A stretch of 64,000 nt of DNA from an uncultured bacterium (GCA_903868125.1 CAIPUE010000023.1:19977-83976), one strand, 5' to 3'; numbered from the stretch's first letter, positions 1,972-63,875 are shown. Notes: generated by a model not told the origin, from the sequence alone. Translations and numbers: made by a program.

Positions 1972-4900
1972 ATGAAAAATTTTTTTGAAGAATATCACGA
2001 ACTTTTATACAACTGCAATAAACCTTATCAATATGTTGGCGGTGAGTTTTTGTCACGCAATAAAAAATTTGAAGCCGCAAAAGTTACCTTTGCATTCGCT
2101 TTTCCCGACAAGTACGAAATTGGGATAAGTAATCTTGGGCAAAGGGTTCTATATGGAATTGTTAACGATCATCCGGATTTTATGGCGGACAGAATTTATG
2201 CTCCAGAGGCGGATTTTAAAAAGAATTTAATAGAAACAGGAAAAGAGTTTTACTCGCTTGAAAGCAAAACTCCGTTGAAAAACTTTGACTTAATAGGGTT
2301 TTCGCTTCAATATGAAATGTCTTATCCGACTGTACTTGCGATGATGGAGATGGCAAAATTTCCTCATAAATCGAGCGAACGAGGTGAAAACGACCCGATA
2401 ATTCTTGCGGGAGGACCTTGTGTTTATAACCCTTTACCACTTGCAGATTTTATTGATGCTTTTTTAATCGGCGATGGTGAGGAGGTTGTTTTAGAGGTTT
2501 GCGAAGCGATAAAATTTGCCAAGGATAAGGGGCTTTCACGTGAAGAAAAAATCCGAAAAATATCGCAAATAGAGGGCGTTTTCGTACCCGCAATTTCAAC
2601 AAACAAAGTTAAAAAACGACTTGTGCAAATCGGGTACGAAAACGCCCTCAAAGCTTATCCAATACCTTTTTGCTCCTCTGTGCATGACAGGGCGATTGTG
2701 GAAATTCGACGCGGTTGTGGAAGAATGTGCAGGTTTTGTCAGCCGGGGCACGTGAATTTGCCGGTGAGAGAAAGAAGCGCAGAAGATATAATAAAAATTG
2801 CAAAAGAATTAGTCAAAAACACAGGATATGACGAATATTCATTGCTTTCTTTGTCGTCAAACGAATATTCAAATATTAAAGAAGTGATTAAAGAACTTGC
2901 CATTGATTTTGACGATAAAAGAGTTTCCGTTTCACTTCCGAGCCAAAGAATTGACGGTTTTAACCTTGAGCTGGCTAATTTGGTTCAAAGTGTTCGAAAA
3001 TCCACCATGACACTTGCTCCTGAGGCAGGAAGTCAAAGGCTTAGAGATGTTATTAGAAAAAATATAACGGAATCACAGATTTTAGATGCCGTTTTAACAT
3101 TATACGAAAACGGCTGGTCGAAGATTAAATTTTATTTTATCATCGGGCTTCCGACAGAAACGCTCGCCGATGTTGATGAGATGGTCAATTTACTTGAAGA
3201 AATCAAGTATCGGACAAAAACTCTCAAACGCGAAAAAGGGTTAAAACACGGGTTGGATTTGACATGTACACTTTCGATTTTTGTGCCGAAGCCGTTTACG
3301 CCTTTTCAATGGTTTGGGCAGTCGGATTTAAGTGAAGTGACGGAAAGAATTCATTATTTAAAAGATAAGACGAAGCATATAAAAGGGCTTAAAATAAATT
3401 ACCATGAGCAATCAGTATCACAACTCGAGGCGGTTTTGACCCGTGGGGGCACTGAACTTTGTAATTATATCGAAAAACTTTGGCAAAAGGGATGTTATTT
3501 GGATGCTTGGGGGGAACATTTTGACAGGCATGTTTGGCGAGAAACTGCCGAGGAATTGGGAATTTCACTGAAGGACTTGGCGGAAAAAGAGTATTCAACG
3601 GAAGAAAATTTGCCATGGGATTTTATTGATATCGGGGTTGAGAAAGATTGGCTGATTTCTGAATATAAAAGCGCACTTGGAAATATAACAAAACCGTCCT
3701 GCGAAACAGGGTGCGTACAATGCGGCGTTTGCTCGAATTTTAATACGCACAAGGTCTTGGATAAGCCGTATTTGAATAAAAAGGAAAAAGAGAAAAGGGA
3801 AACTGAGGTAGAAAGCCGTTTACCGTTTACCGTTAACCGTTTACCCAACAAATATCGTATTAAATTAACAAAAACAGGCATTCTGCGTTATTTTTCTCAT
3901 CTTGATTGGCAAAATACTTTTCATAAAGCAATAGCTAGAAGCGGTCTGAACGTTGTGTTTTCGCAAGGATTTAATCCCTCGATGAAGGTATCTTTGGGCG
4001 TTGCTCTTCCGCTTTTTGTCGAGAGCGAATGTGAGCTTGTGGATATAGAAATTTATAACGAGCCGATAATCTCCTTGACGGGGAAAGAGCTAGGAGAGTT
4101 CGAAAACGAAGCGGATTTGCGAAAAGCCGCGATTGCCTATTACAAAAAAAATATTCAGGGGATAACAGTTGAACATCCTGTTTTAGGTGGAATTCAGTTT
4201 ACAGGTAGCGGGCTTGCTAAAACTAAAGATGCCAGTGCGGATATTTGTAAATTGCAAATAATATCAAAATTGCTTGAATTGGTTCAAACTGGACTATACG
4301 AAGGTTCATTACCACCGTACAAATCAAATAGTAAATTTAAAAAATATCATTATTTAACAAATAAAATTTTTATTGGTGGGGAAATATTTAAACATAGAAT
4401 AACGATAGGCGAAGATACAAATGGGAATAAATATTACAATATAAATGACATAAAATATAGCCCATCGACATTGACCGGCGTACAACCACCGGGTACCGAT
4501 GAGCTAAAAAAAGGTTCAGAAACTTTTACCAGGTTACAAAACTTGGATGCTAATGAACCTAATAATATTATACAACATTCGAACCCTAATTTCAACCCCT
4601 CCGACGAAAGCGAAATAACCTCGCTCCAACTAAAGTTGGAAAAAATTCTTCCTGAGGGTTGCGAAATAATAAGTATTGTAAAACTCGATAAATCTGCCAA
4701 AGCTATTGATAATACAGTGCAATGGGCTGAATACCAAATTAAGCTTTTTGATGAGACTATTCAAAATTTTGAAAGTTTGCGCTATAATATGGAAAGAGTT
4801 TTGTCTTCTGAAGAAATTTTACTGACGAAGAAAAACAAAAAAGGATTTTTAAAAAGCATAAACATAAAACCCGCCATCAAATCATATAGATTTGGAGGTA

Positions 4901-11771: not shown

Positions 11772-12851
11772 TTATGCTTTCTTCTGTGTTTCCGCAGTTT
11801 TTTCAGCATCTGTCGCTACAGGTGCAGGAGGTGCTGTTGTTGCGGGTGTCGGAGCAGGGATGTCAGCAACCTGTGCTAACTTTTCCAATGCCTTTGTCGC
11901 CGCTTGCTGAACATTTGCATCCTGATCTTTCTTAGCAACCGTAAACAAAGTTGTTAAGTCTTGTTTGTATTCAGGACGTTGAATATAGCTCAAGGCATCA
12001 ATCCCCGAAGCTCTTACCATTGGGTTCGGATTTGTTTTAACCTGTTCCACAATGCCAGCGGCACCCGGAAGTTCAGTTAAAGGAACAACTGTATTGTTTA
12101 TTTTTTCTATCTCTGAGCCGTACAATTTTTGTAAAATCGCCACGGTGTAAATTGAGTATTGTTTGTTTCTTTCAGCTTGTTCCATTGGAGTGATTTTATT
12201 TGCTTCCGCTGTTTCGGCTTCGGTCACTGTTTTACCACCCATAATTTTTTCTCTGATTTGAAGTTGTTGAGGAGTAGGACCTTCTAATTTTGTTGTATCT
12301 TTACTCATTATTCCCAACAATGTGTCAATGATTTTTACATCCAACAATTCAGTGGCTTTGTCAGGTGAATTTTGCGACATATCAGCGATTGATTCCATTG
12401 CTTTAGCCTGTACTTCATAATCAGGACTTGTTAACTTTGTTATAAATTCATTTAAATCAATTTTAGGAGTTACAACTTCCGGTGCTTTAACTTCCACTTG
12501 TTGCGCAGGAGCAGGTGCTACAGGTGCCGGCGCTGCAACAGGGACAACCGCCGCTTGATTAATACTCGGTTGAATTATTACCGGTGGTGGAACTGGCGGT
12601 ACTTCTTGTACTGCAGGAGGTGAACTTACCTGCTGAGGCTCTTGTTGTGGTTTATAAATTGATTGTTGAGGCATTTCGTAAACCTGAGCTTGAGGATAAG
12701 CATAAATCGGTGCAGTTACTGGTGCCGAAGCAGGAGCTTGTGAACCTGGAGTATTGACTTGAGGGTTGTGAATATCAATTTTTACAGCATTATAATTCGG
12801 TTGTGGAGCTGTTTGACATTGTGTGGCTTGTGTTAGTGGGACTTGCATCAT
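11772..12851 (-). CDS. P/Q/A-rich protein with C-terminal HEAT-like repeats, hypothetical
   Basis: Low-complexity Pro/Gln/Ala N-terminal half. The C-terminal half has HEAT/PBS-lyase-like helical repeats (..ASGIDALSYI..DANVQQAATKALEKL). The start is set to ATG 12851 rather than the upstream TTG. Confidence 0.5.
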   Translation of the reverse strand: MMQVPLTQATQCQTAPQPNYNAVKIDIHNPQVNTPGSQAPASAPVTAPIYAYPQAQVYEMPQQSIYKPQQEPQQVSSPPAVQEVPPVPPPVIIQPSINQAAVVPVAAPAPVAPAPAQQVEVKAPEVVTPKIDLNEFITKLTSPDYEVQAKAMESIADMSQNSPDKATELLDVKIIDTLLGIMSKDTTKLEGPTPQQLQIREKIMGGKTVTEAETAEANKITPMEQAERNKQYSIYTVAILQKLYGSEIEKINNTVVPLTELPGAAGIVEQVKTNPNPMVRASGIDALSYIQRPEYKQDLTTLFTVAKKDQDANVQQAATKALEKLAQVADIPAPTPATTAPPAPVATDAEKTAETQKKA

Positions 12852-13224
12852 TTTTTTTCCTTTCAAAAAATAACTCTATTATTTACATTCTACTATTTAA
12901 ATAACCGTGAAGAATATAAGTTGCTAGTTTAAACTTTTTTTTTAATAATTTGTAACATTTCATTTTGGGAAATGCCTTGGATGGCTATAGGTTGGGGGTT
13001 TTCATTCAATTAAATATTTTGATTTTAAATAATGTTTGTTATAGAAAAATAAATTAATTTATGTAAATATACAAAAATTATATGTTATGTGTATATTGAA
13101 TTGGGGTATATGTTTAATATAACCAATCTCTTTTTCTTTATTTTCTCCTCCACTCCTTTATCCAATCTAAAGTTTTTAGCCGTTCATACGGCTATTTTTA
13201 TGCGTAGAAATCTCGCATAAATAG

Positions 13225-13327
13225 AGCCCACTGCACAAGTATAGAAAATTTGTTTTGACTGCTTTCTCCGAAATCTTTGATTTCGAGAGAAATGTCCCTA
13301 TGCGGGTTCTTAATTGTGCAGTGGGCT
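13225..13327. mobile_element. MITE-like element, copy 1 (14-bp perfect TIR, 7-bp flanking direct repeat)
   Basis: AGCCCACTGCACAA (13225-13238) / TTGTGCAGTGGGCT (13314-13327). TAAATAG is present on both flanks (13218-13224, 13328-13334). Internal hairpin CTCCGAAATC/GATTTCGAGAG. Confidence 0.8.
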
Positions 13328-13389
13328 TAAATAGTTAAAAAGCTTTTTTACTTTGTGACATTCATATATTGTTCAAAGCAGGTAATTTA

Positions 13390-13812
13390 TCAAATACCAA
13401 TGGCGTTATCGGATGCTTCTTGCAGACGTTTAATTAAATCCTGTTGAAAGTTGTTTTGCTGTAATGTTTTAATAATATCATTCGAAGTGCCTTGAGCAAT
13501 GGTAAATTCACCTTTAATGTTGGGTTTTGAATATTTCATTACTAAAATAATTTTTTCTAAGCGGGTTTTTCTTGAAATGAAACTAAACTCGTCAAAAACT
13601 ATGCTACCTTCTGGATTAGAAAAAGCCTGTTCAAAGGCGAATTTACTATTTTTCAAGGCGTTAGATACTTCTGATATTGCTTTATCCAGAGGCATTACCT
13701 TAGTAAATTCATCTAATCTGTGGCTTTTAAAAGCAGGATTAGCATGTGCATTATTTGTTTGCCTAAGCTTATAAGAATTGCCATGTTCGTAAGGGGTAAT
13801 TTTTATAATCAT
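13390..13812 (-). CDS. hypothetical small protein; candidate partner (antitoxin/immunity) of the upstream RSH-like gene
   Basis: 140 aa. ATG at 13812 lies 8 nt after GGAGG (13821-13825). It is 68 nt downstream of 13896..15503 on the same strand. The FISRKTRLEKIILVMKY segment resembles FMSRERILQRAEKVLGY in the 337..816 product. Confidence 0.55.
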   Translation of the reverse strand: MIIKITPYEHGNSYKLRQTNNAHANPAFKSHRLDEFTKVMPLDKAISEVSNALKNSKFAFEQAFSNPEGSIVFDEFSFISRKTRLEKIILVMKYSKPNIKGEFTIAQGTSNDIIKTLQQNNFQQDLIKRLQEASDNAIGI

Positions 13813-13895
13813 TTTTAGAACCTCCAAGCTTTGTAATTATAATAACAAAAACAAAATAATAAAAAAGTTGCTAGTGAGCTTAATAAAGCTTAATG

Positions 13896-15503
13896 TTAAT
13901 TGGATAAATTTTCAACCCCTGTAGCAAAAGCTACTTGTGATTTCAAATTGAAAGGAAGTTTAATAGAACCCGGAGCTAAGCTTTTAGCTTGTTTATATGC
14001 AACTTCCAAATTTTCTACACTCAAAATAGGATTTGTTCCGTCTGGCAGAGTTGGTTTTGTAGCTGATTTACCAAATTCTTTCGCTTGTGCGTAAACGAAT
14101 CTGTTATATATGTATTTTTCGTATTCTATAAATTGTTCTTCGTCCAATTTCTTGATAGCTTTTTGAATTCTAGCCAAAATAATACCTATCTGATTATTCC
14201 CCTTTGCAATATCTTTTCCCTCTCTTAAATCGTAAGGAATGTGTTCAATCTTTGCAAGATCATGAACATGTTCTCCTCTGATTTGAAGTTCAATTATGGC
14301 ACCGTTTTTAGACCTAATATTCATTTGAGTAGCGGTATAGCCCGAATGCTTTTCGGTAAACACACATTCCATAGTACCTGAAATATCCTGTATCTTTCTA
14401 ACTTGTGCTTCTGAGAAATAAAACTCGGTACTTCCTCCAAAATTACTGTTTGCCCCTCTGTAATTTTTAACTTTAAGTATTTCAATATCACCTTTTTTGA
14501 TTGCATTCACTAATGAGGTAACAATTTTGTTAATGCTCCTAGGGCTTACATCATTAAGGGTTAATCTTGCGCCATATAAATCTTGAACTTTATCTTTTAC
14601 TAAATCTTTATTTCTTGTAATTTCTTTTTTTTCAGCCAATAATTTTGATATTTTTATTTGTTTTATTTCATCTGAAAAATCGGCACAATTTTTAACTTTT
14701 TTAATCTTATGGTTGAGGTCTATAGTTCTTTCTTTAACCAATTTTTCGTATATAGAAAGTTCACATTTTGAACGACCCTTTAAAGAAGTTCTAAATTCTT
14801 CTGGCAGGGCTTCTTTGACTGCGTTAAAAGATTCTTCAAAATGCTCCTGTCCTTCTTTAAACAATTCATTGCTAAATTTTCTTAAGCTTCTTGGTTGAGT
14901 TACAAATTTCAATGCGTTATTTAAATTTGCTCTATAGTAGCCGGATTTAAAAACATCAAAGCTTTCTGTCGCAAGACTTTTTGAAGAATTAAAACATTTT
15001 TGTGTCGCAGTTAAAAAATTGAGTCCGTCTGTTTTGATATTAGCTTGTTTTAGAGAGCTTTTTGCTCCCATCATTGATAAGCCGATAGTGGAGGTTGCTC
15101 CGCCAATATCATAAAATGCTTTTTCAACATCATCATTGTTTTTAGCTTTTATTATTTTATAAACTCCATTACCTGCTTGAATTGCGCCCATACCGATGCC
15201 TGCTGCCACCAATATAGGTGCCGCGGCACCTCCGGTTGCCGCAAGCAATATCATGCTTCCTGCAATCATCCCTGCCCCGATGGCAATGTTCTTGGGACTG
15301 GAAAACATGCTTGTAATTGGAGAAATTAAACCTTTTCCAAAATTTTTCATTGCTTCTGATGTGCTGAATTTTCCATCTTTAGATTTATCTAATTTGTCCT
15401 TAGAAAAATTAATATTTGCATTACAAACAGCTACATTTTCAGTTTTTTTATCCTGATATTTTGTATAACCGTTATGTGACAATTTTTCAATATATAAACT
15501 CAA
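13896..15503 (-). CDS. membrane-anchored RelA/SpoT (RSH)-like nucleotidyltransferase domain protein (toxSAS-like candidate)
   Basis: 535 aa. TTG start with a GAGGG SD. Gly/Ala-rich hydrophobic segments at aa ~72-115. The C-terminal half carries RSH synthetase motifs in order: GRSKCELSIYEKLVKE, QDLYGARLTL, KVKNYRG, HSGYTATQMNI, IIELQIRGEHVHDLAKIEHIPYD. Confidence 0.6.
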   Translation of the reverse strand: MSLYIEKLSHNGYTKYQDKKTENVAVCNANINFSKDKLDKSKDGKFSTSEAMKNFGKGLISPITSMFSSPKNIAIGAGMIAGSMILLAATGGAAAPILVAAGIGMGAIQAGNGVYKIIKAKNNDDVEKAFYDIGGATSTIGLSMMGAKSSLKQANIKTDGLNFLTATQKCFNSSKSLATESFDVFKSGYYRANLNNALKFVTQPRSLRKFSNELFKEGQEHFEESFNAVKEALPEEFRTSLKGRSKCELSIYEKLVKERTIDLNHKIKKVKNCADFSDEIKQIKISKLLAEKKEITRNKDLVKDKVQDLYGARLTLNDVSPRSINKIVTSLVNAIKKGDIEILKVKNYRGANSNFGGSTEFYFSEAQVRKIQDISGTMECVFTEKHSGYTATQMNIRSKNGAIIELQIRGEHVHDLAKIEHIPYDLREGKDIAKGNNQIGIILARIQKAIKKLDEEQFIEYEKYIYNRFVYAQAKEFGKSATKPTLPDGTNPILSVENLEVAYKQAKSLAPGSIKLPFNLKSQVAFATGVENLSN

Positions 15504-15564
15504 AAATGACCCTCGAAATAAAATATCCTTATTAATTTAAAAACATTTTCTTTCGAAAAATTGC

Positions 15565-16026
15565 CTATAAAAGCGCCTTAATAACTATTTTCTTTACATA
15601 ACTCGGAGATTTTGTTGCTATAGACGGTTTATGGGCATCGTTGGGGAATAAAATCAGAAATTCTTTTGCTTTTATTTGTACAAATTCAGGCATGCAATTT
15701 GTATTTGGAGACAGAAAAACAATATCCTTATTTTCATCATAATTTGTACTTTCTGAAAAATTTTCTATCCCCAAAACCCCGATTTGTTCTTCACCTTTCA
15801 CGATATATTGAATATCAATATATTTTTTGTGGGCTTCAAATTGTCCTTCAGCAATTGGTTTTGATAAATAATCTTGAACTATTGCGAAAACTTCATTACC
15901 CGAAATTTTATATTTTCCATTTGCAAGTACAGAAAAATCCGTGTCGGCAAGATATTCTAACCCGAGTTTTATATGTTCTGATAAATCAGAATAATTCTTT
16001 GCATTTTTAATATTGTCTTTTATCAC
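15565..16026 (-). CDS. YhcH/YjgK/YiaL family (DUF386) protein
   Basis: 153 aa. GKYKISGNEVFAIVQDY...FEAHKKYIDIQYIVKGEEQIG...FLILFPNDAHKP matches the family pattern. Confidence 0.7.
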   Translation of the reverse strand: MIKDNIKNAKNYSDLSEHIKLGLEYLADTDFSVLANGKYKISGNEVFAIVQDYLSKPIAEGQFEAHKKYIDIQYIVKGEEQIGVLGIENFSESTNYDENKDIVFLSPNTNCMPEFVQIKAKEFLILFPNDAHKPSIATKSPSYVKKIVIKALL

Positions 16027-20426: not shown

Positions 20427-21770
20427 ATGGAATTAGAAAAAAAAGAATCTATATTTGAAAAAGCCCGAGGTTATTCGGCACTGTTTGCGAACCGTGATTT
20501 TTGCATGTTGTGGTTGGCGCAGATTTTTTCGCAATTTGCGGACAGAATAATTTTTGTTGTGTTTGTAACCATAATCGCAATCAATTTTGACCCGAGCGGA
20601 AAATCAACGAGTTTGCAAAGTTGGCTTTATATCGCATTTACAATCCCTGCAATACTTCTTACGGCGATTGCAGGGGTATTTATTGATATTTGGAATAAAA
20701 AAATAGTCATGATAATTACAAATATTCTTCGAGGCTCCATTATTCTGCTTTTGCCGTTTTTTGACAAAACGCTTATGTCCCTTTATGTTTTAGCTTTTGC
20801 GCTTTCAGCCGTAACCCAGTTTTTTGTGCCTGCGGAGGCTTCAATTATCCCTTCGGTGGCTAATAAATACCAATTAATGACCGCAAATTCGCTTTTTGCA
20901 ACGACGATGATGGGGTCGCTGATTTTTGGGTTTGCTCTTGGGGATCCTATGATAAACATTTTCGGGATTGATTATGTCCATTTAGGAATCGGGCTTTTCT
21001 TTTTCCTTTCGGCTTTTTGCCTGATTTTTGTAAGATATAAACCTGTGGCAAAAATTACGGGAGCTAAAACGAACTTTTGGGCGGATATGAAAGAGGGCTT
21101 AGTTTATATAAAAGGTGCGCCGATAGTGCGTTCTGCTATGTTAAAACTGGCGGCATTGTTTTCTATAATTGTTATGTTGTCAATCATGTCAATCGGGTTA
21201 AGCCAAAAATATCTTTATCCTAATAATCCAGCGATGGGTGCACAAAAGTTTGCTTATATCGTAGTTTTTTGTGGAATAGGCATGGTCTTTGGAGCTTTTT
21301 TGGTCGGTCAGCGCTTTAGAAAGGTTGAAAAACATCTTTTGGTTTATATAGGAATTTTTACTTGTGGGTTATCGTTGTTAATGTTTTCACTATTGCCTCT
21401 AATCCCTCAATTAAGTGTTTTTCACTTTAAAACAAGGTCTGTATTGATTTTTTACTTGGAGCAGTTTGATTTGACTTATCCGATGTTGTACAGCTATGTT
21501 ACGGCTGTTCTAATAGGTATTTCTACAGCATTTGTCGCAATTCCTACCCAAACAATTTTGCATACCGAGATTGACCCGCAGGTTAGGGGAAAAGTGTTCG
21601 GGATTTTGTTTACGCTTTTGAGCACGGCATCGGCATTTCCTGTTTTGGTTGCGGCTTGGGGTGCTGAAATGGTCGGCGTTGCCAAGATGATTTTCCTAAT
21701 CGCTTTTCCTGTCTTGATTTTTGGGGTTTATAAGCTGATTACCTATCGCAGACGGTTTTTGATAAGTTGA
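20427..21770 (+). CDS. MFS transporter
   Basis: 447 aa, about 12 TM helices. The N-terminal NRDFCMLWLAQIFSQFADRI is typical of the MFS_3/EntS-like group. Confidence 0.75.
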   Translation: MELEKKESIFEKARGYSALFANRDFCMLWLAQIFSQFADRIIFVVFVTIIAINFDPSGKSTSLQSWLYIAFTIPAILLTAIAGVFIDIWNKKIVMIITNILRGSIILLLPFFDKTLMSLYVLAFALSAVTQFFVPAEASIIPSVANKYQLMTANSLFATTMMGSLIFGFALGDPMINIFGIDYVHLGIGLFFFLSAFCLIFVRYKPVAKITGAKTNFWADMKEGLVYIKGAPIVRSAMLKLAALFSIIVMLSIMSIGLSQKYLYPNNPAMGAQKFAYIVVFCGIGMVFGAFLVGQRFRKVEKHLLVYIGIFTCGLSLLMFSLLPLIPQLSVFHFKTRSVLIFYLEQFDLTYPMLYSYVTAVLIGISTAFVAIPTQTILHTEIDPQVRGKVFGILFTLLSTASAFPVLVAAWGAEMVGVAKMIFLIAFPVLIFGVYKLITYRRRFLIS

Positions 21771-21850
21771 GACCACTGCACAATTAAGAACCCGCATAGG
21801 GACATTTCTCTCGAAATCAAAGATTTCGGAGAAAGCAGTCAAAACAAATT
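21771..21850. mobile_element. MITE-like element, copy 2 (inverted relative to copy 1; far end degenerate)
   Basis: GACCACTGCACAATTAAGAACCCGCATAGGGACATTTCTCTCGAAATCAAAGATTTCGGAGAAAGCAGTCAAAACAAATT is the reverse complement of 13248-13325. It starts 1 nt after the MFS stop codon. Confidence 0.85.
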
Positions 21851-22672: not shown

Positions 22673-25363
22673 ATGAAGCTTTTTGAGAAGAAGAATGTTA
22701 TTAGGATAGATGCAGATGATTTAAGAGATGCCAAACTGTCATCGATGGGTTTTATTGATGATAATACCCAAAAACGTGTGTTTATTGATATTCTTGGTGC
22801 AAGATTAGCCATGAAGATGCTTTTTGAAAAGAAAATTCAAGCAAGTAATCTATACAGTCTTTACACAATTCATAATGTTATTGAAGAACTTGATATAGCC
22901 GATATTTATTTTCAGGGAATAAAAATGGATGTTCGTTTGGTTTTTAACAGCGAAGAAATATTTATCCCGAAATCTCACTTTGAATACGGCTTATTACCTG
23001 ATTTGTACCTCGTTTTAGAGCTAAAAGAAGATTTATCTTCAGCAGATTTTATAGGATTTTTTGAACCTAAAATATTGAATCAACAAAATGCTAATAAAGA
23101 TTTTTACTTCCATGAGGCTGATAGATTAAATGACCCTAGTAATCTTAAGACCTTTTTAGAAGATTTTATAGTCGAAAACAATTTTGATATACCTGAAGAT
23201 AATATTGAAAATACAAAAGAATTATTTTTGTCATTGGTTGATAAAGAAATTTCTAAAAATGATAAACACTTTTTGTTTGAACAATTGGCAAAAAGTTCTT
23301 CGCTAAGAGAACAGGTCGTGGAATTCGAAAATTTTGAACTTATTTCAAGAGAAGCTGCGAAAAATGAAGACATGTTTAAAGATGGGGTTTTAGATATTGT
23401 CGGAGCTCAAAAAATATTTGATGAGATTGTGGATGATGAAGAATTTGGCCTGTTTGCTGCCGAGCTTGATAATGAATCTTTTGACACAGACAAAACAAGT
23501 CAATTAGCAGCAGAGATTGCTATTGGAGGTGCTATCGCGGGTGGCGTTGTTAATTTAGCTGCCGCAGGATTGGAATTAGAAGCTGCACTTGCCCAAAATA
23601 GCGTGGATAATTTGGCTGCCGGCATTGAATTGGGAGCTGAAATTGTTAAGGAAGGAACTGAATTTGTTTCCGAAACCGTAAATTTGGGAAGCGAAATTTT
23701 TGAACCGGAAGCGGAAAATATTCAATCTGAAATTGAGGATATGGCGTTATTGGAATATAGCTTATTTGGAGATATTGAGACACAAACTGAAGGATTTGAG
23801 GAATTACCTGAATTCGAACTCTTAGAGGATTCGTTGGAGACTTTTAATGATAATTTGCAGACAGAAGAACAATATTTTGATACGACAGAAAATGAAGAAC
23901 AAGAATCAAGTCAAAGCGAAGAAGTTTTGGAAGTAAATGATGTTGATTTAAACATGTTGGATGGAACGGATGAAAATTTTCAAAATGAGGCTATAGATGA
24001 CGTAGATTCTTTCGATTCGTCTTTATTTCAAAATGAAGAAATTGAACAAGAAGAAATTCCGCAGGAGTTTAAGGACTTGGGTGAGTTGGAAGAAACCCAA
24101 CAATTTAAAGCCGAAGAAGTTTTGGAATTAAATGCTTTTGATTTAAACATGTTAGATGGAATGGATGAGAATTTTCAAAGTGAGGCTATAGATGACGTAG
24201 ATTCTTTCGATTCGTCTTTATTTCAAAATGAAGAAATTGAGCAAGAATTTAAGGAGTTGGATGAATCGGAAGAAAACAAACAACTCGAATCCGATGGCGA
24301 AACAAATGTTTTACAAAGATTGAGGCAGTTAGAACAAGAAGAACAAGAAGAAATATTAGATGAAGATGAAGATGAAGTTCAAGAAAAGCCTGACGAATTT
24401 CTCTTTCAGGTTGACGAATTTTTAAAAGATGTAGAATTTTCTGATGAACAGAAAGAATTTTTAGAGGATAGCTTGTTTGATACTATTGATGAAACCGAAA
24501 CAATAAATCCATCACAACTTCCTGAAATAAATTATGTCGAGCATGAAGCATTTGATGATTTTGAGCAGGATATTAAATCTTCCGGAGATGATAAAGATCT
24601 GCTAAAGGTTTTGTTTGAAAAAGAAATGAACAAAAATGTTGAAATGTCGGCATTAGAGAATGAAGTAAATGAAACAAAGTATTTTGGAACTCCAATCTAT
24701 AAAAACAAAAAAATGATTATAGCGGCTTCTGTTGCCAGTGTTGTTCTTGCATCTTTGGTAATCGGCACAGGTGTTTTCCATAATAAAAATAATGAAACGA
24801 AATTTGCCAATAACGCCACTACTGCCCCAATATCAGCAGAAGGACAAGCTTTAAGCGGATTACAGCAAGAAAATGCCGCGAATTCGGGTTTAGGTCAACA
24901 AATGCCTGAACAAGCGACAGATTCAACCTTGCAACAACCAATTCAGGGTGAATATCAACAAGCTGATGCAAGCCGAGATATGGGCAAAGCGGTTTCTGAC
25001 GCATTTTTATCTGAACCGGTAAATGCAAGTATTTCAAAAGTAGCTTGGGAAGTCCCTGAAGATATTGCTTATAATGATACTTTTAGAAAATATTTGCAGA
25101 TAGCCGGCAAAAATTTGAAATTAAATCTTCAAAATGATTTGTTGCTTGCGACAGAGATGGCTTATTCTAACAAGGTTATAGTCGATTTAGTAATAAAAAA
25201 TGACGGTTCTTTGCAATCCGAAGAAATTGCAGCTTCGAGTGGTTCAAAGCAAATTGATAAGATAGTGTTACAAAGTGTTAAAGAAACTTTAAAATACTTA
25301 AAAATGCCTTCCAGTGAGCTTAGTGGCGGTTCTGCAACTGCTACCCTTATCATTAACTTTTAA
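22673..25363 (+). CDS. DUF1822-like N-terminal domain / long acidic repeat region / single TM / TonB_C-like C-terminal domain protein (anti-sigma-like architecture)
   Basis: 896 aa. The N-terminal ~160 aa fit the DUF1822 pattern (RVFIDILGARLAMKML; IADIYFQG.KMDVRLV...IFIPKSHFEYGLLPDLYLVLELKEDLSSADFIGFF). D/E-rich middle region with a 65-aa duplication. TM helix MIIAASVASVVLASLVIGTGVF. The C-terminal VIVDLVIKNDGSLQSEEIAASSGSKQIDKIVLQSVKETLKYLKMP resembles TonB_C. Confidence 0.5.
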   Translation: MKLFEKKNVIRIDADDLRDAKLSSMGFIDDNTQKRVFIDILGARLAMKMLFEKKIQASNLYSLYTIHNVIEELDIADIYFQGIKMDVRLVFNSEEIFIPKSHFEYGLLPDLYLVLELKEDLSSADFIGFFEPKILNQQNANKDFYFHEADRLNDPSNLKTFLEDFIVENNFDIPEDNIENTKELFLSLVDKEISKNDKHFLFEQLAKSSSLREQVVEFENFELISREAAKNEDMFKDGVLDIVGAQKIFDEIVDDEEFGLFAAELDNESFDTDKTSQLAAEIAIGGAIAGGVVNLAAAGLELEAALAQNSVDNLAAGIELGAEIVKEGTEFVSETVNLGSEIFEPEAENIQSEIEDMALLEYSLFGDIETQTEGFEELPEFELLEDSLETFNDNLQTEEQYFDTTENEEQESSQSEEVLEVNDVDLNMLDGTDENFQNEAIDDVDSFDSSLFQNEEIEQEEIPQEFKDLGELEETQQFKAEEVLELNAFDLNMLDGMDENFQSEAIDDVDSFDSSLFQNEEIEQEFKELDESEENKQLESDGETNVLQRLRQLEQEEQEEILDEDEDEVQEKPDEFLFQVDEFLKDVEFSDEQKEFLEDSLFDTIDETETINPSQLPEINYVEHEAFDDFEQDIKSSGDDKDLLKVLFEKEMNKNVEMSALENEVNETKYFGTPIYKNKKMIIAASVASVVLASLVIGTGVFHNKNNETKFANNATTAPISAEGQALSGLQQENAANSGLGQQMPEQATDSTLQQPIQGEYQQADASRDMGKAVSDAFLSEPVNASISKVAWEVPEDIAYNDTFRKYLQIAGKNLKLNLQNDLLLATEMAYSNKVIVDLVIKNDGSLQSEEIAASSGSKQIDKIVLQSVKETLKYLKMPSSELSGGSATATLIINF
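23918..24248 (+). repeat. 195-bp (65-aa) in-frame duplication in the acidic region of 22673..25363
   Basis: EEVLE[VL]N..DLNMLDG.DENFQ.EAIDDVDSFDSSLFQNEEIEQE occurs twice. The copies start at 23918 and 24113. Confidence 0.9.
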
Positions 25364-31354: not shown

Positions 31355-31402
31355 CGGGACTTTTTTTATTAGATTTATAATTTTTTAAAATCACATTATT
31401 AA

Positions 31403-31451
31403 GACCACTGCACAAGTATATTTTTGTAAAAAATGGACTTGTGCATTAGTC
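31403..31451. mobile_element. miniature/degenerate copy of the CCACTGCACAA element
   Basis: GACCACTGCACAAGTATA ... ACTTGTGCATTAGTC. This is the TIR pair with only ~20 nt between the arms. Confidence 0.55.
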
Positions 31452-61949: not shown

Positions 61950-63875
61950 ATGATAATTAAAAGAATGAAAAAAGTTTTATCAAGTATAGTTTTAGCAATA
62001 TGCTTGCTTGTTTATACCGCGCCTATCGGTTTATGCATCTCAGGATTTCCGATTATTGATGCTCGGATAAACAAACCTCTTTTGAGGGATACGGCTAAGA
62101 CTTCGGCACTTAAATTGGAGGGTGATATTTCCATTACAAAGGGAAATCCCAAAATTAATTTGAGCTTAAGGGATTCAGATGTTAAACAAGTTTTGAGAAT
62201 GTTAGCTGATAAAGCGGGCTTAAATATCATTTTTCATGCGTCGGTAGTTGGTGGTACTTCTACTTCTTCATCAAGTGGTATATCAGGAAGCGTTTCCAGT
62301 TCTGGTAGCACAGTAGGAACCATCACCATGGATTTGGTAAATGTACCCTTGAATGATGCATTTAAATTAGTAATGCAGGTAACGGGATTAACTTATTTTA
62401 TGGATAAAAACACTATGATTGTTACTTCTGCAGAGGCAGCAAAAACCCTTAACATGGCAAAACAGGAAATAAGCGTTATACCTGTAAAATATATAAATGC
62501 TTTGCAATTAGCTAATTTTTTAAATAAAAACATTTTTTCTATAAATAAACCGGGGCTTTCCAATGGTAATATAGCAATTGTTAATCCAGGAGAAAATGAA
62601 ATTTTAATCTTCGGTACTGAAAATGATGCTAAAATGGCAAGAAAAATAGTAGCTCAATTTGATGTTAAGCCAAGAGAGGAATCTTTCGTTGTAAACCATA
62701 CAACTCCAGCTGAAATGGCTCAGGCAGTATGTCAAACATTAATAGGAAAAGATTTTGGGAGCCCCGGCTCCAGCAGCTCAGGTGGGTCTTCCACAGGAGG
62801 TGTCACAAGTACTTCTGGGAGTACTTCAGGAAGTGCTTCCGGAAGCGGCTTAACATTAGGAGGACAAACAATTGCATGCACTGTAGAGACAAGCTTGTCC
62901 AGCGACAATCTTGAATCAATGAAAATGAAAAACATGATAATTTCATACTTCCCTCAAAGAGGAATTCTCAATGTTATTGGAGGTTCAATTCAACAATTAG
63001 AAATGATTAGAGATTTTATTGTGAAAAACGATAAAAAACAGCCTCAAGCTTATTTAGAACTTTCTATAATAGAATTAAATGAAACGGGTAGTAGGGAATT
63101 CGATAACACTTGGCAGGTATGGAGTAAATATTTCTCAGGAACTTTTGATGGAGCATCAACAAAAACAAGCCCTCTGTACCCTCAGTTTCTTTCAGAAGGT
63201 CAAGGTTATACTGTTGTAGACTCGGCGGCAAACAAATTCGCTAAATTATATGATGTTGCAACGTTCTCAGGAGTGCCTACTATAACTTATGCGATGAATT
63301 ATATTATTTCAAATAATAAGGGGCGTGTGCTTGCAAATCCGAGAATTATGATTACGAATGGAGAAACTTCTACAATAGATTTATCATCGGATTATGTAAA
63401 ATCAGTAACCTCGCAAGTTCTCGCAACTGGCGGTATGGCAGGGGCGACTCAAAAAACTTATGAAATTGGTAGTGATGAAGGTATAAAGGTATCAATTGTT
63501 CCTTTTATAAGTCCTGATGGTTATGTAACTTTGAATATTAATCCGACCTACTCAACAATAAAGGAAAAAGTTTATGCGCCGAGTACTACGGGTACCGGTA
63601 CGGATTTGGCTGCAACGTTATTGCAAAGAAGAAATTTGGATTTAAAAAATGTTAGGATAAAGGATGGTGAAACTCTTGTAATTGGCGGAATGATGAGGGA
63701 AAATGAAACAAAAACTGTGTCCAAAATTCCTGTTTTAGGAGATCTTCCGGGTGCTGGGGTTTTCTTTAGAAATTCTGTTTCCTCAAAAGAAAAACAAGAA
63801 CTCGTTATAATGATTACTCCTAAAATTATCAAGGATTCAGAAGATTTAGTTAAAAATACGGATGTGACTTTATAG
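61950..63875 (+). CDS. pilQ: type IV pilus / type II secretion secretin (PilQ/GspD family)
   Basis: 641 aa. Signal peptide, N domains, and secretin core (LANPRIMITNGETSTIDL ... IPVLGDLPGAGVFFRN...ELVIMITPKII). Confidence 0.8.
   Translation: MIIKRMKKVLSSIVLAICLLVYTAPIGLCISGFPIIDARINKPLLRDTAKTSALKLEGDISITKGNPKINLSLRDSDVKQVLRMLADKAGLNIIFHASVVGGTSTSSSSGISGSVSSSGSTVGTITMDLVNVPLNDAFKLVMQVTGLTYFMDKNTMIVTSAEAAKTLNMAKQEISVIPVKYINALQLANFLNKNIFSINKPGLSNGNIAIVNPGENEILIFGTENDAKMARKIVAQFDVKPREESFVVNHTTPAEMAQAVCQTLIGKDFGSPGSSSSGGSSTGGVTSTSGSTSGSASGSGLTLGGQTIACTVETSLSSDNLESMKMKNMIISYFPQRGILNVIGGSIQQLEMIRDFIVKNDKKQPQAYLELSIIELNETGSREFDNTWQVWSKYFSGTFDGASTKTSPLYPQFLSEGQGYTVVDSAANKFAKLYDVATFSGVPTITYAMNYIISNNKGRVLANPRIMITNGETSTIDLSSDYVKSVTSQVLATGGMAGATQKTYEIGSDEGIKVSIVPFISPDGYVTLNINPTYSTIKEKVYAPSTTGTGTDLAATLLQRRNLDLKNVRIKDGETLVIGGMMRENETKTVSKIPVLGDLPGAGVFFRNSVSSKEKQELVIMITPKIIKDSEDLVKNTDVTL

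Follow-up and report, generated by a model that had tools for sequence, protein, structure and literature searches.

The 64,000-nt stretch of DNA analysed here (hereafter the window), which comes from an uncultured bacterium (GCA_903868125.1, CAIPUE010000023.1:19977-83976), carries on its minus strand a gene for a 535-aa protein which, judged by sequence and predicted fold, is a highly divergent synthetase from the family of RelA/SpoT homologs (RSH) with intact active-site residues, followed by a gene for a 140-aa partner protein. RSH enzymes control growth via (p)ppGpp and related nucleotides, and the same fold has repeatedly become a toxin. The protein belongs to a new, lineage-restricted RSH subfamily, and our preferred, although tentative, reading of the two-gene module is that of an alarmone synthetase tethered to the membrane and held in check by an inhibitor-like partner of its own. 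The two genes and the sites preceding them are as follows.

13896..15503, minus strand: RSH-family gene coding for 535 aa (start codon TTG at 15503, stop codon at 13896-13898; list of open reading frames (ORFs), PF04607, homologs and AlphaFold2 (AF2) model)
15510..15514, minus strand: Shine-Dalgarno-like GAGGG, 6 nt before the TTG start (sequence reading)
13390..13812, minus strand: gene for the 140-aa partner (ATG at 13812; ORF list and conserved downstream position)
13821..13825, minus strand: Shine-Dalgarno GGAGG, 8 nt before the partner ATG (sequence reading)

Both reading frames, with the GGAGG sequence before the second one, had been recognized in an initial annotation of the window and were found on one strand at the coordinates above. 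The start of the RSH gene agrees with an alignment of 39 homologs, in which the M-S/G-L position also provides the first residues. The gap of 68 nt given in that annotation is the distance to an in-frame TTG at 13827; this codon overlaps the Shine-Dalgarno sequence. The partner is best read from the ATG at 13812, which makes the intergenic gap 83 nt. Promoter and terminator scans gave counts no higher than in shuffled sequence, so no operon boundaries can be drawn.

The assignment to the RSH family, already proposed in the initial annotation, holds on several grounds. The PF04607 (RelA_SpoT) profile matches aa 296-421 of the 535-aa protein above its gathering score (30.7 vs 27 bits, E 4e-7), and the same match is precomputed for most of its homologs, about 75 of which are full-length proteins of 500-560 aa with 40-97% identity from public metagenomes and metagenome-assembled genomes (MAGs). 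The sequence stretches originally listed as RSH motifs, namely GRSKCELSIYEKLVKE, QDLYGARLTL, KVKNYRG, HSGYTATQMNI and IIELQIRGEHVHDLAKIEHIPYD, are all present, and the motifs follow each other in the order R244-x-K246, D308-x-x-G311-x-R313, N347-Y348, G388-Y389, E405-x-Q407-x-R409 and E420-H421-x-x-Y424-D425. Eight residues are invariant in 39 full-length homologs (R244, K246, D308, Y389, E405, Q407, E420 and Y424); a further eight are invariant or nearly so (G311, R313, N347, Y348, G388, R409, H421 and D425), and 17 highly diverse cores show the same complete or near-complete conservation at the catalytic positions. D308 and Y389 are the equivalents of FaRel2 D90 and Y128, the Mg2+-binding Asp and the acceptor-stacking Tyr, both of which are essential for FaRel2 activity (bioRxiv 10.1101/2021.04.30.441581). 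The His of the classical GYxSxH motif is replaced here by Gln (SGYTATQ).

The protein can be divided into the following regions, from the N-terminus to the C-terminus.

15387..15503, minus strand: aa 1-39, N/S/K-rich leader of variable length, predicted to be disordered (pLDDT below 50 for aa 1-36)
14958..15386, minus strand: aa 40-182, conserved N-terminal module common to non-RSH proteins (profile A7)
15159..15290, minus strand: aa 72-115, charge-free Gly/Ala helical hairpin within the module, NIAIGAGMIAGSMILLAAT-GGAAAP-ILVAAGIGMGAIQAGNGVY (hydropathy, charge and conservation)
14784..14957, minus strand: aa 183-240, helical linker into the core (model helices 190-202 and 205-232; RelA alignment)
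14214..14783, minus strand: aa 241-430, RSH synthetase (SYNTH) alpha/beta core (conservation, PDB profile matches and Foldseek)
13899..14213, minus strand: aa 431-535, conserved helical C-terminal extension (model helices and conserved residues)

The AF2 model built on the family alignment (pLDDT 85.3, pTM 0.75) leads to the same family. In the Foldseek comparison against the PDB, the top 11 matches are all RSH enzymes, with probabilities up to 1.0 and a best E-value of only 9e-3; CapRel (7ztb) comes first, SaEAS (8vx3), Rel and RelA are also matched, and Tas1 (6ox6) is placed 19th. Against BFVD, a phage RelA/SpoT protein is matched at E 4.6e-4. The structural alignments to known RSH enzymes have about 12-15% identity. 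The core contains a variable helical insert of about 50 aa (aa ~259-300) after the RxK helix. The C-terminal extension is modeled as helices 437-451, 455-476, 496-507 and 520-534 with a pLDDT of about 95 up to aa 510, and in the C-terminal part of the protein K430, Y464 and L494 are invariant and D431, L453, Y461, Y469, E476 and P484 nearly so; it is possible that this extension serves as a docking or regulatory surface. No model in NCBIfam, PADLOC or PHROGs matches the 535-aa protein and no source names any member of the group, in agreement with the initial annotation, which could place this architecture in no described family.

The profile of the catalytic core, when compared with the PDB, matches a long RSH (9s6k_B, 3e-8), RelP (6fgk, 1.2e-6), RelQ (5dec, 1.6e-4) and RelA (5e-4), as well as 2be3 and Rel, while no toxSAS (toxic small alarmone synthetase), Tas1 or exported synthetase chain appears at E <= 10. 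Among the small alarmone synthetases (SASs), the sequence similarity is thus best to RelP and RelQ. In the full-length family profile, residues 188-266 of the query align with residues 192-271 of RelA, which are helices ahead of the SYNTH core. The initial annotation had called the protein toxSAS-like; the two-gene layout and the top fold match to CapRel agree with this, whereas the core profile, which matches Rel, RelP and RelQ and no toxSAS, does not. The toxSAS label is thus uncertain. By the profile and model searches, the protein falls into none of the validated toxSAS subfamilies (FaRel, FaRel2, PhRel, PhRel2 and CapRel) and its partner matches no known antitoxin. Neither is it an enzyme of the RelP/RelQ type, i.e. 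a single domain of about 210-250 aa without a partner, as it has 535 aa, four extra regions and a partner gene.

In two relatives, P0075 (L022:138-2696) and P0106 (L023:2376-4265), a Ppx/GppA domain (E 9e-17 in each) is located directly N-terminal to the RSH core, at the position of the linker (aa 183-240 equivalent). P0075 begins with the hairpin module followed by Ppx/GppA and the RSH core, while P0106 has an N-terminus which by eye resembles a signal peptide of the Sec type, then Ppx/GppA and the RSH core. GppA turns pppGpp into ppGpp, and we know of no description of a Ppx/GppA-RSH fusion. As Rosetta-stone evidence, these two independent fusions suggest that the family acts on guanosine polyphosphates, and, in line also with the core-profile matches to a long RSH, RelP and RelQ, the product is probably a nucleotide of the guanosine type. 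The fusions form a hydrolase-synthetase layout reminiscent of that of long RSHs, with a different hydrolase.

The hydrophobic hairpin lies within the conserved N-terminal module, which consists of an amphipathic helix (DGKFS..KNFGKGLISPITSMFSSPKN), the hairpin, then a third helix of semi-hydrophobic character and finally a further helix; AF2 models the module as six helices with a pLDDT of 80.7. The regions preceding the module (n=219) are rich in N (12%), S (11%) and K (8%). According to the hydropathy profile, aa 72-115 is the sole hydrophobic segment of the protein, with Kyte-Doolittle (KD) peaks of 1.86 and 2.01 in a 19-residue window, the maximum beyond aa 160 being 0.84. Averaged over 24 diverse members of the family, the arms (aa 72-90 and 97-115) reach KD values of 1.67 and 1.35 and contain 0.1 and 0.6 K+R; the GGAAAP turn contains 0.0 and the flanks 5.2 and 3.0 K+R. 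With a KD of 0.93, the third helix (aa 132-147) is more polar than a transmembrane segment should be. Both arms have small-xxx-small motifs, A74xxxG78xxxG82 and G102xxxG106xxxA110, and in 39 homologs P96, G102 and G106 are invariant and G76, T90, G91, G92 and A93 nearly invariant. The segment therefore has the sequence features of a hairpin anchor, namely adjacent charge-free hydrophobic helices, small-xxx-small motifs and positive flanks, and the description of this region as a glycine-zipper with about two transmembrane helices appears reasonable for a single hydrophobic hairpin of 45 residues with such charges and Gly motifs. Because of the positive-inside rule and the K/R-rich flanks, a hairpin with both ends in the cytoplasm is favored, so that the region most likely fits a two-helix membrane anchor with a predicted N-in/C-in topology. 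No Sec signal peptide and no LXG, PAAR/Rhs, MuF, DUF4157 or XopAD domain was detected by Pfam in the 535-aa protein or in module-bearing paralogs, and the first 39 aa are hydrophilic; by this search, the protein thus shows neither the signal peptide nor the secretion-associated domain that characterize exported synthetases and secretion effectors.

The lower homolog matches align only to the first 25-35% of the 535-aa query and have unrelated C-termini, and the module of about 140 aa with its hairpin is, as far as profile searches go, the defining part of a large unnamed paralogous family. The module-only profile A7, searched exhaustively against 1.84 billion representative sequences, retrieved 1,081 clusters at E <= 1e-3, including 189 at E <= 1e-30. 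These proteins have 139-971 aa, and in all of them the module is close to the N-terminus. The module has no Pfam model; Foldseek on the module alone gave nothing below E = 1. In a sample of 225 module proteins, 82 have the RSH core and the other tails form 45 BLAST clusters, for which one representative per cluster was annotated with Pfam. The largest of them (55 members) matches the ADP-ribosyltransferase exoenzyme family PF03496 with 27.9 bits against a cut-off of 23.4, and the ADP-ribosyltransferase-like tails, e.g. P0138, P0078, P0110 and P0114, possess R-S-E motifs (VYRGE / FTFSKS / QFE). Other tail matches include PRTase-CE (2), DnaJ (2), FHA, GrpE, YscD-like and CBAH. A constant N-terminus with variable C-terminal heads (at least 45 tail families) is what is seen in polymorphic toxins; a downstream immunity gene for each toxin and a linkage to a secretion apparatus were not found. 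No long RSH and no second N-module paralog was found elsewhere in the window. The ADP-ribosyltransferase-like module genes stand alone amid housekeeping genes with no immunity-like ORF, as in L014, where rpoB follows P0138 (L014:5455-7809). Two tandem N-module paralogs of 361 and 367 aa are located in one Gastranaerophilales MAG (L019:1828-2913 and 3178-4281), suggesting local duplication.

The second component of the pair, initially described as a small downstream ORF, proved to be a conserved partner, syntenic with 24-35% identical homologs in other contexts. A co-directional ORF of 134-157 aa directly follows the RSH gene in 11 out of 15 distinct loci (the window, L002, L003, L005, L006, L007, L022, L024, L025, L026 and L027), with gaps from -20 to +101 nt, and is absent from L008, L009, L010 and L023; these 11 loci therefore show the conserved layout known from toxSASs, in which the SAS gene keeps a small neighbor within a group of two or three genes. 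The genomic contexts of the pairs in L022 and L024-L027 are quite different from that of the window locus, in L025-L027 the partner is kept beside RSH proteins without the hairpin module, and in L024 the genes share a 20-nt overlap. The pair is retained across RSH identities down to about 24%.

A word-based homolog search with the partner found only the partner itself, and homology was for this reason established through positional orthologs and profiles. The ORFs after P0002 and P0003 are 43% and 35% identical to the partner. The partner sequences form two BLAST clusters, and the hidden Markov model (HMM) of each cluster detects members of the other (E 5e-4; 3e-8, 9e-4 and 1e-3) with 0 false positives among 1,288 background ORF segments; hhalign between the clusters gives 82 co-linear columns at E 1.3e-4. 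By these profile comparisons the partner ORFs are one family. It diverges about twice as fast as the enzyme, with identities of 43/35/29/25/21% vs 76/65/54/46/49% for the enzyme from the same genomes. No relative was found in Pfam, PDB, PADLOC, PHROGs or NCBIfam, and no DNA-binding or known antitoxin domain. At the loci of non-RSH module paralogs (L012-L021) there is no conserved co-directional small ORF downstream, and the sizeable co-directional genes found there are rpoB (L014), pheT (L021) and the second N-module paralog (L019). Judging from this distribution, the partner travels with the RSH catalytic domain and not with the anchor module. P0106, the relative with the signal-peptide-like N-terminus (L023), has no partner, which parallels exported synthetases that need no immunity protein (PMC12691689). 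A candidate N-terminal signal motif common to the RSH proteins and the partners (…x-x-F-G/S/K…) was rejected as a composition effect: when the HMM of the partner N-termini was scored on the RSH N-termini and on shuffled controls, 3.5% of the RSH N-termini vs 1.2% of the shuffled sequences were above 8 bits. Another conserved ORF of 59-84 aa (MF.FN…F..ALKES…NYPGV[DE][FAI]), with no annotation, is located after the partner in L006:10286-10465 and directly after the RSH gene in the partner-less loci L008:7357-7611, L009:4086-4274 and L010:2631-2819.

The gene directly upstream of the RSH gene is the following.

15565..16026, minus strand: YhcH/YjgK/YiaL (DUF386) gene, 61 nt upstream of the RSH gene (Pfam E 1.2e-40)

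The gene order GIY-YIG (opposite strand), YhcH/DUF386 and RSH is common to L001-L011, i.e. eleven loci with nine distinct hairpin-bearing RSH genes, and is held down to about 40% RSH identity, with dapA-rpmB-secDF beyond the locus in the nearer relatives; the partner follows in six of the nine and is missing from L008-L010. YhcH was considered as a component of the system and rejected, being absent from the deeper-branching pairs (L022-L027); it is a conserved neighbor of the hairpin-bearing RSH genes. The identities of the enzyme, YhcH and the partner fall together with distance, which is what vertical descent would give. A scan of a genome collection with the trimmed module alignment A4 gave 14 loci, assigned to Candidatus Gastranaerophilales, Gastranaerophilaceae, Ca. 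Limenecus, Cyanobacteria bacterium UBA7753 and unclassified MAGs. The RSH member is single-copy and syntenic, the pair has a GC content normal for the window with no compositional anomaly, and no relatives were found by tblastn in 50,697 phage records and 72,556 plasmid records. On this comparative evidence the RSH-partner pair is a vertically inherited chromosomal fixture of Candidatus Gastranaerophilales (Melainabacteria), which are relatives of cyanobacteria living in the gut, i.e. a fixed housekeeping locus rather than part of a mobile element or defense island, and the earlier description of its surroundings as a typical accessory context has to be abandoned. Two MAG labels disagree with this lineage: L011 (CAYMMX010000005.1, labeled Muribaculaceae) matches L006 and has Gastranaerophilales-type genes, and in L013 (ONYB01000063.1, labeled Brachyspira) P0138 is identical to the form in the UBA7753 cyanobacterial MAG. 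Both are likely binning or labeling errors.

The AT-rich stretch of about 520 bp beside the pair, reported to contain a miniature inverted-repeat transposable element (MITE), is the downstream spacer 12867-13389 (GC ~0.27), and it does hold a repeated inverted-arm element with 17-nt arms at 13225-13241 and 13311-13327 (AGCCCACTGCACAAGTA / TAATTGTGCAGTGGGCT), 69 nt apart. A second copy in the opposite orientation, near-identical over about 80 nt, is located at 21770-21850 and an arm-only match at 31402-31415; in the window the arm pattern is matched 4 times, vs 0.21 expected. The element looks like a MITE or a repeat of the repetitive extragenic palindromic (REP) type, and its presence in the spacer does not make the RSH locus accessory. 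In L022 the P0075 pair adjoins a Prim-Pol/DUF3987 primase, an HTH_17 protein and a large serine recombinase (L022:3421-8696); this arrangement points to a mobile-element border and is the sole mobility hint for the family.

Several other features were noted around the loci. A Pro/Gln-rich protein with HEAT repeats at its C-terminus is encoded syntenically downstream of the RSH pair in the window (11772-12866, minus strand), L002:10499-11569, L005:12899-13975 and L007:10652-11701, and those of the window, L002 and L007 have in common a strikingly well-kept N-terminal motif, …YNAVKIDIHNP.VN.PG…. There is a secretin gene (Secretin, STN and Secretin_N) at 61950-63875 (plus strand) of the window, and in L003:5640-12350 a Tad/type II secretion system (T2SS)-like cluster (SAF, secretin, CpaE-like ATPase, T2SSE and two T2SSF) begins about 800 nt after the partner; neither the secretin nor the Tad cluster is consistently linked to the RSH pair. 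An 896-aa ORF at 22673-25363 has no Pfam match at E <= 1e-5. No tRNA, tmRNA or Rfam family at gathering score was found in the window, and a sub-threshold match to a miRNA family of Rfam near the locus was treated as chance.

Taken as a membrane-tethered synthetase with a restraining partner, the module would most likely work as follows. The hairpin would dip into or span the cytoplasmic membrane with both ends inside, tethering the enzyme to the inner face; an enzyme facing the cytoplasm is favored since other cargoes of the module (DnaJ, GrpE and FHA) are cytoplasmic-type domains. The enzyme would move pyrophosphate from ATP to a guanine nucleotide, giving (p)ppGpp or pGpp, and the soluble 140-aa partner would bind it directly and keep it inactive until a releasing signal, plausibly at the envelope, frees the enzyme. 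The partner would thus be functionally an antitoxin-like or immunity-like inhibitor. Several observations weigh against this picture. The acceptor substrate cannot be fixed from sequence, as the literature on acceptor specificity offers no simple residue rule separating ppGpp, ppApp and tRNA enzymes, and CapRel, a tRNA pyrophosphokinase, ranks first in Foldseek, though only at E 9e-3. In most lineages the partner has a basic pI of 9-10, and the enzyme is basic too, which is odd for a tight electrostatic inhibitor. The KD values of the hairpin arms are only moderate and AF2 packs the hairpin among other helices, so the region may instead form a helical bundle in solution, or a hairpin that inserts only under certain conditions. 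L008, L009 and L010 keep intact motifs with no partner within 6 kb, and inhibition is therefore not obligatory for viability in every lineage. These lineages could be accommodated, since SASs are probably on a toxicity continuum on which an antitoxin is needed only above some level (PMC7229694).

It is also conceivable, although fairly unlikely in our view, that the two genes form a toxSAS toxin-antitoxin or abortive-infection module, with a growth-arresting enzyme pyrophosphorylating tRNA CCA ends or making (pp)pApp and a partner acting as a type II antitoxin, until a trigger such as phage infection sets the toxin free. A bicistronic layout of a SAS gene and a small ORF, seen here in 11 of 15 loci and once with a 20-nt overlap, is the very criterion by which toxSAS modules were identified (PMC7229694); the fast evolution of the partner, the ranking of CapRel as the top PDB match and of phage RSH proteins as the top viral matches in Foldseek, and the block of Prim-Pol/DUF3987, HTH_17 and serine recombinase genes beside the L022 pair go in the same direction. 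However, the locus is a fixed, vertically inherited, housekeeping one without PADLOC or PHROGs matches or any phage or plasmid copy, the core profile is nearer to Rel, RelP and RelQ than to any toxSAS, guanosine polyphosphates are suggested by the fusions to Ppx/GppA, three lineages have an intact enzyme but no partner, and the partner is basic and lacks a DNA-binding or known antitoxin domain. To our knowledge, no described toxSAS has a membrane anchor. An ordinary housekeeping SAS next to a mere syntenic neighbor or to some accessory protein unrelated to it, the two not being directly linked in function, would agree with the profile similarity to RelP and RelQ, with vertical inheritance in a core-gene neighborhood and with the loss of the partner in three lineages, but is quite improbable: the pair is kept down to about 24% RSH identity across unrelated contexts and without the module, which chance synteny fails to explain, the genes overlap by 20 nt in L024, and 535 aa with large extra regions are far from the ~210-250 aa of RelP and RelQ.

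The combination of one module with at least 45 unrelated tails, including ADP-ribosyltransferase and PRTase-CE, raises the question of whether the module is an undescribed delivery or membrane-insertion domain of gut Melainabacteria that brings variable enzymatic heads, J-domains among them, out of the cell or into a target membrane, the RSH protein and its partner being an effector-immunity pair of a polymorphic family in which the partner would shield the producer and its kin. Several self-inserting toxin domains are built in this way, with amphipathic helices around a hydrophobic hairpin, and the relative with a signal-peptide-like N-terminus has no partner. RSH cargoes have a precedent in Tas1/Apk1-Tis1 and in exported synthetases, which use type VI, type VII and type III secretion systems, extracellular contractile injection systems (eCIS) or the Sec pathway, with a downstream immunity gene if the enzyme passes through the cytoplasm (PMC12691689). 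Nevertheless, we consider this explanation distinctly unlikely, as there is no consistent linkage to secretion-system genes, Pfam and Foldseek give no known export domain for the module, the charge pattern favors a resident N-in/C-in anchor and the DnaJ, GrpE and FHA cargoes are ordinary cytoplasmic modules. Besides, paralogs of the ADP-ribosyltransferase and other types lie amid rpoB, pheT and similar genes without an adjacent immunity-like ORF, the RSH-partner pair also exists without the module, and the RSH member, with its single copy and kept synteny, differs from toxin cassettes, which turn over fast. A restrained, membrane-tethered synthetase is therefore the explanation to which we adhere, with the caution expressed above.

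An RSH enzyme with a small cognate protein is already known as a kind of system; new features are the putative membrane hairpin, the family of the partner, the status as a vertically inherited core-genome locus and the fusions to Ppx/GppA, which parallel the hydrolase-synthetase layout of long RSHs with a different hydrolase. A full-text literature search for Melainabacteria and ppGpp returned only unrelated work, and the two most relevant surveys of RSH systems make no mention of this lineage. Should the partner be an inhibitor, it would represent a new class of RSH regulator and point to a direct link from envelope state to alarmone synthesis; if the effector explanation is true, it would be a new structural class of RSH inhibitor. 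The module family, with more than 1,000 clusters and toxin-like ADP-ribosyltransferases, occurs in common but poorly studied gut bacteria of humans and animals.

With polymorphic toxin families the proteins have in common one constant N-terminal module on at least 45 unrelated tails, but here only the RSH members have a small partner, there is no secretion linkage, several tails are of the cytoplasmic type and the genes are scattered amid housekeeping genes. Tas1/Apk1-Tis1 and the exported alarmone synthetases (EAS; PMC12691689) likewise carry an RSH head on a modular N-terminal domain that sets the destination of the enzyme, and a small protective-type gene lies downstream of the cytoplasm-made enzyme and is absent from the signal-peptide-like relative. 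The module is, however, unlike a Sec signal peptide, LXG/WXG, XopAD, MuF, DUF4157 or Rhs/PAAR, secretion genes are not linked to it, the distribution of its charges suggests an anchor resident in the membrane, and the supplementary data of the EAS paper (PMC12691689) contain no entries from Melainabacteria, Gastranaerophilales or Cyanobacteria. RelP and RelQ (SasA/SasB) and the SYNTH domains of long RSHs are the closest solved proteins by profile, and the pre-core helices align with RelA; compared to RelP and RelQ, the enzyme is about twice as large, with the hairpin, the insert, the C-terminal extension and a dedicated partner, and compared to the long RSHs (Rel and RelA) it lacks the HD hydrolase, TGS and ACT domains according to Pfam.

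The toxSASs (FaRel, FaRel2, PhRel, PhRel2 and CapRel; PMC7229694) are similar in having a stand-alone RSH synthetase domain with the catalytic Asp, Tyr and Glu intact and a conserved two-gene layout with a small, fast-diverging, family-specific partner. The differences are that there is no sequence-level match to any solved toxSAS and no PADLOC match, that the hairpin module, the ~50-aa insert and the ~100-aa C-terminal extension are added, that the partner family is new and dispensable in some lineages, and that the locus is fixed and vertical, with no phage or plasmid copies. The pair would thus represent a third arrangement between housekeeping SASs and mobile toxSASs, namely a core, vertically inherited, membrane-tethered synthetase with a fast-evolving small protein.

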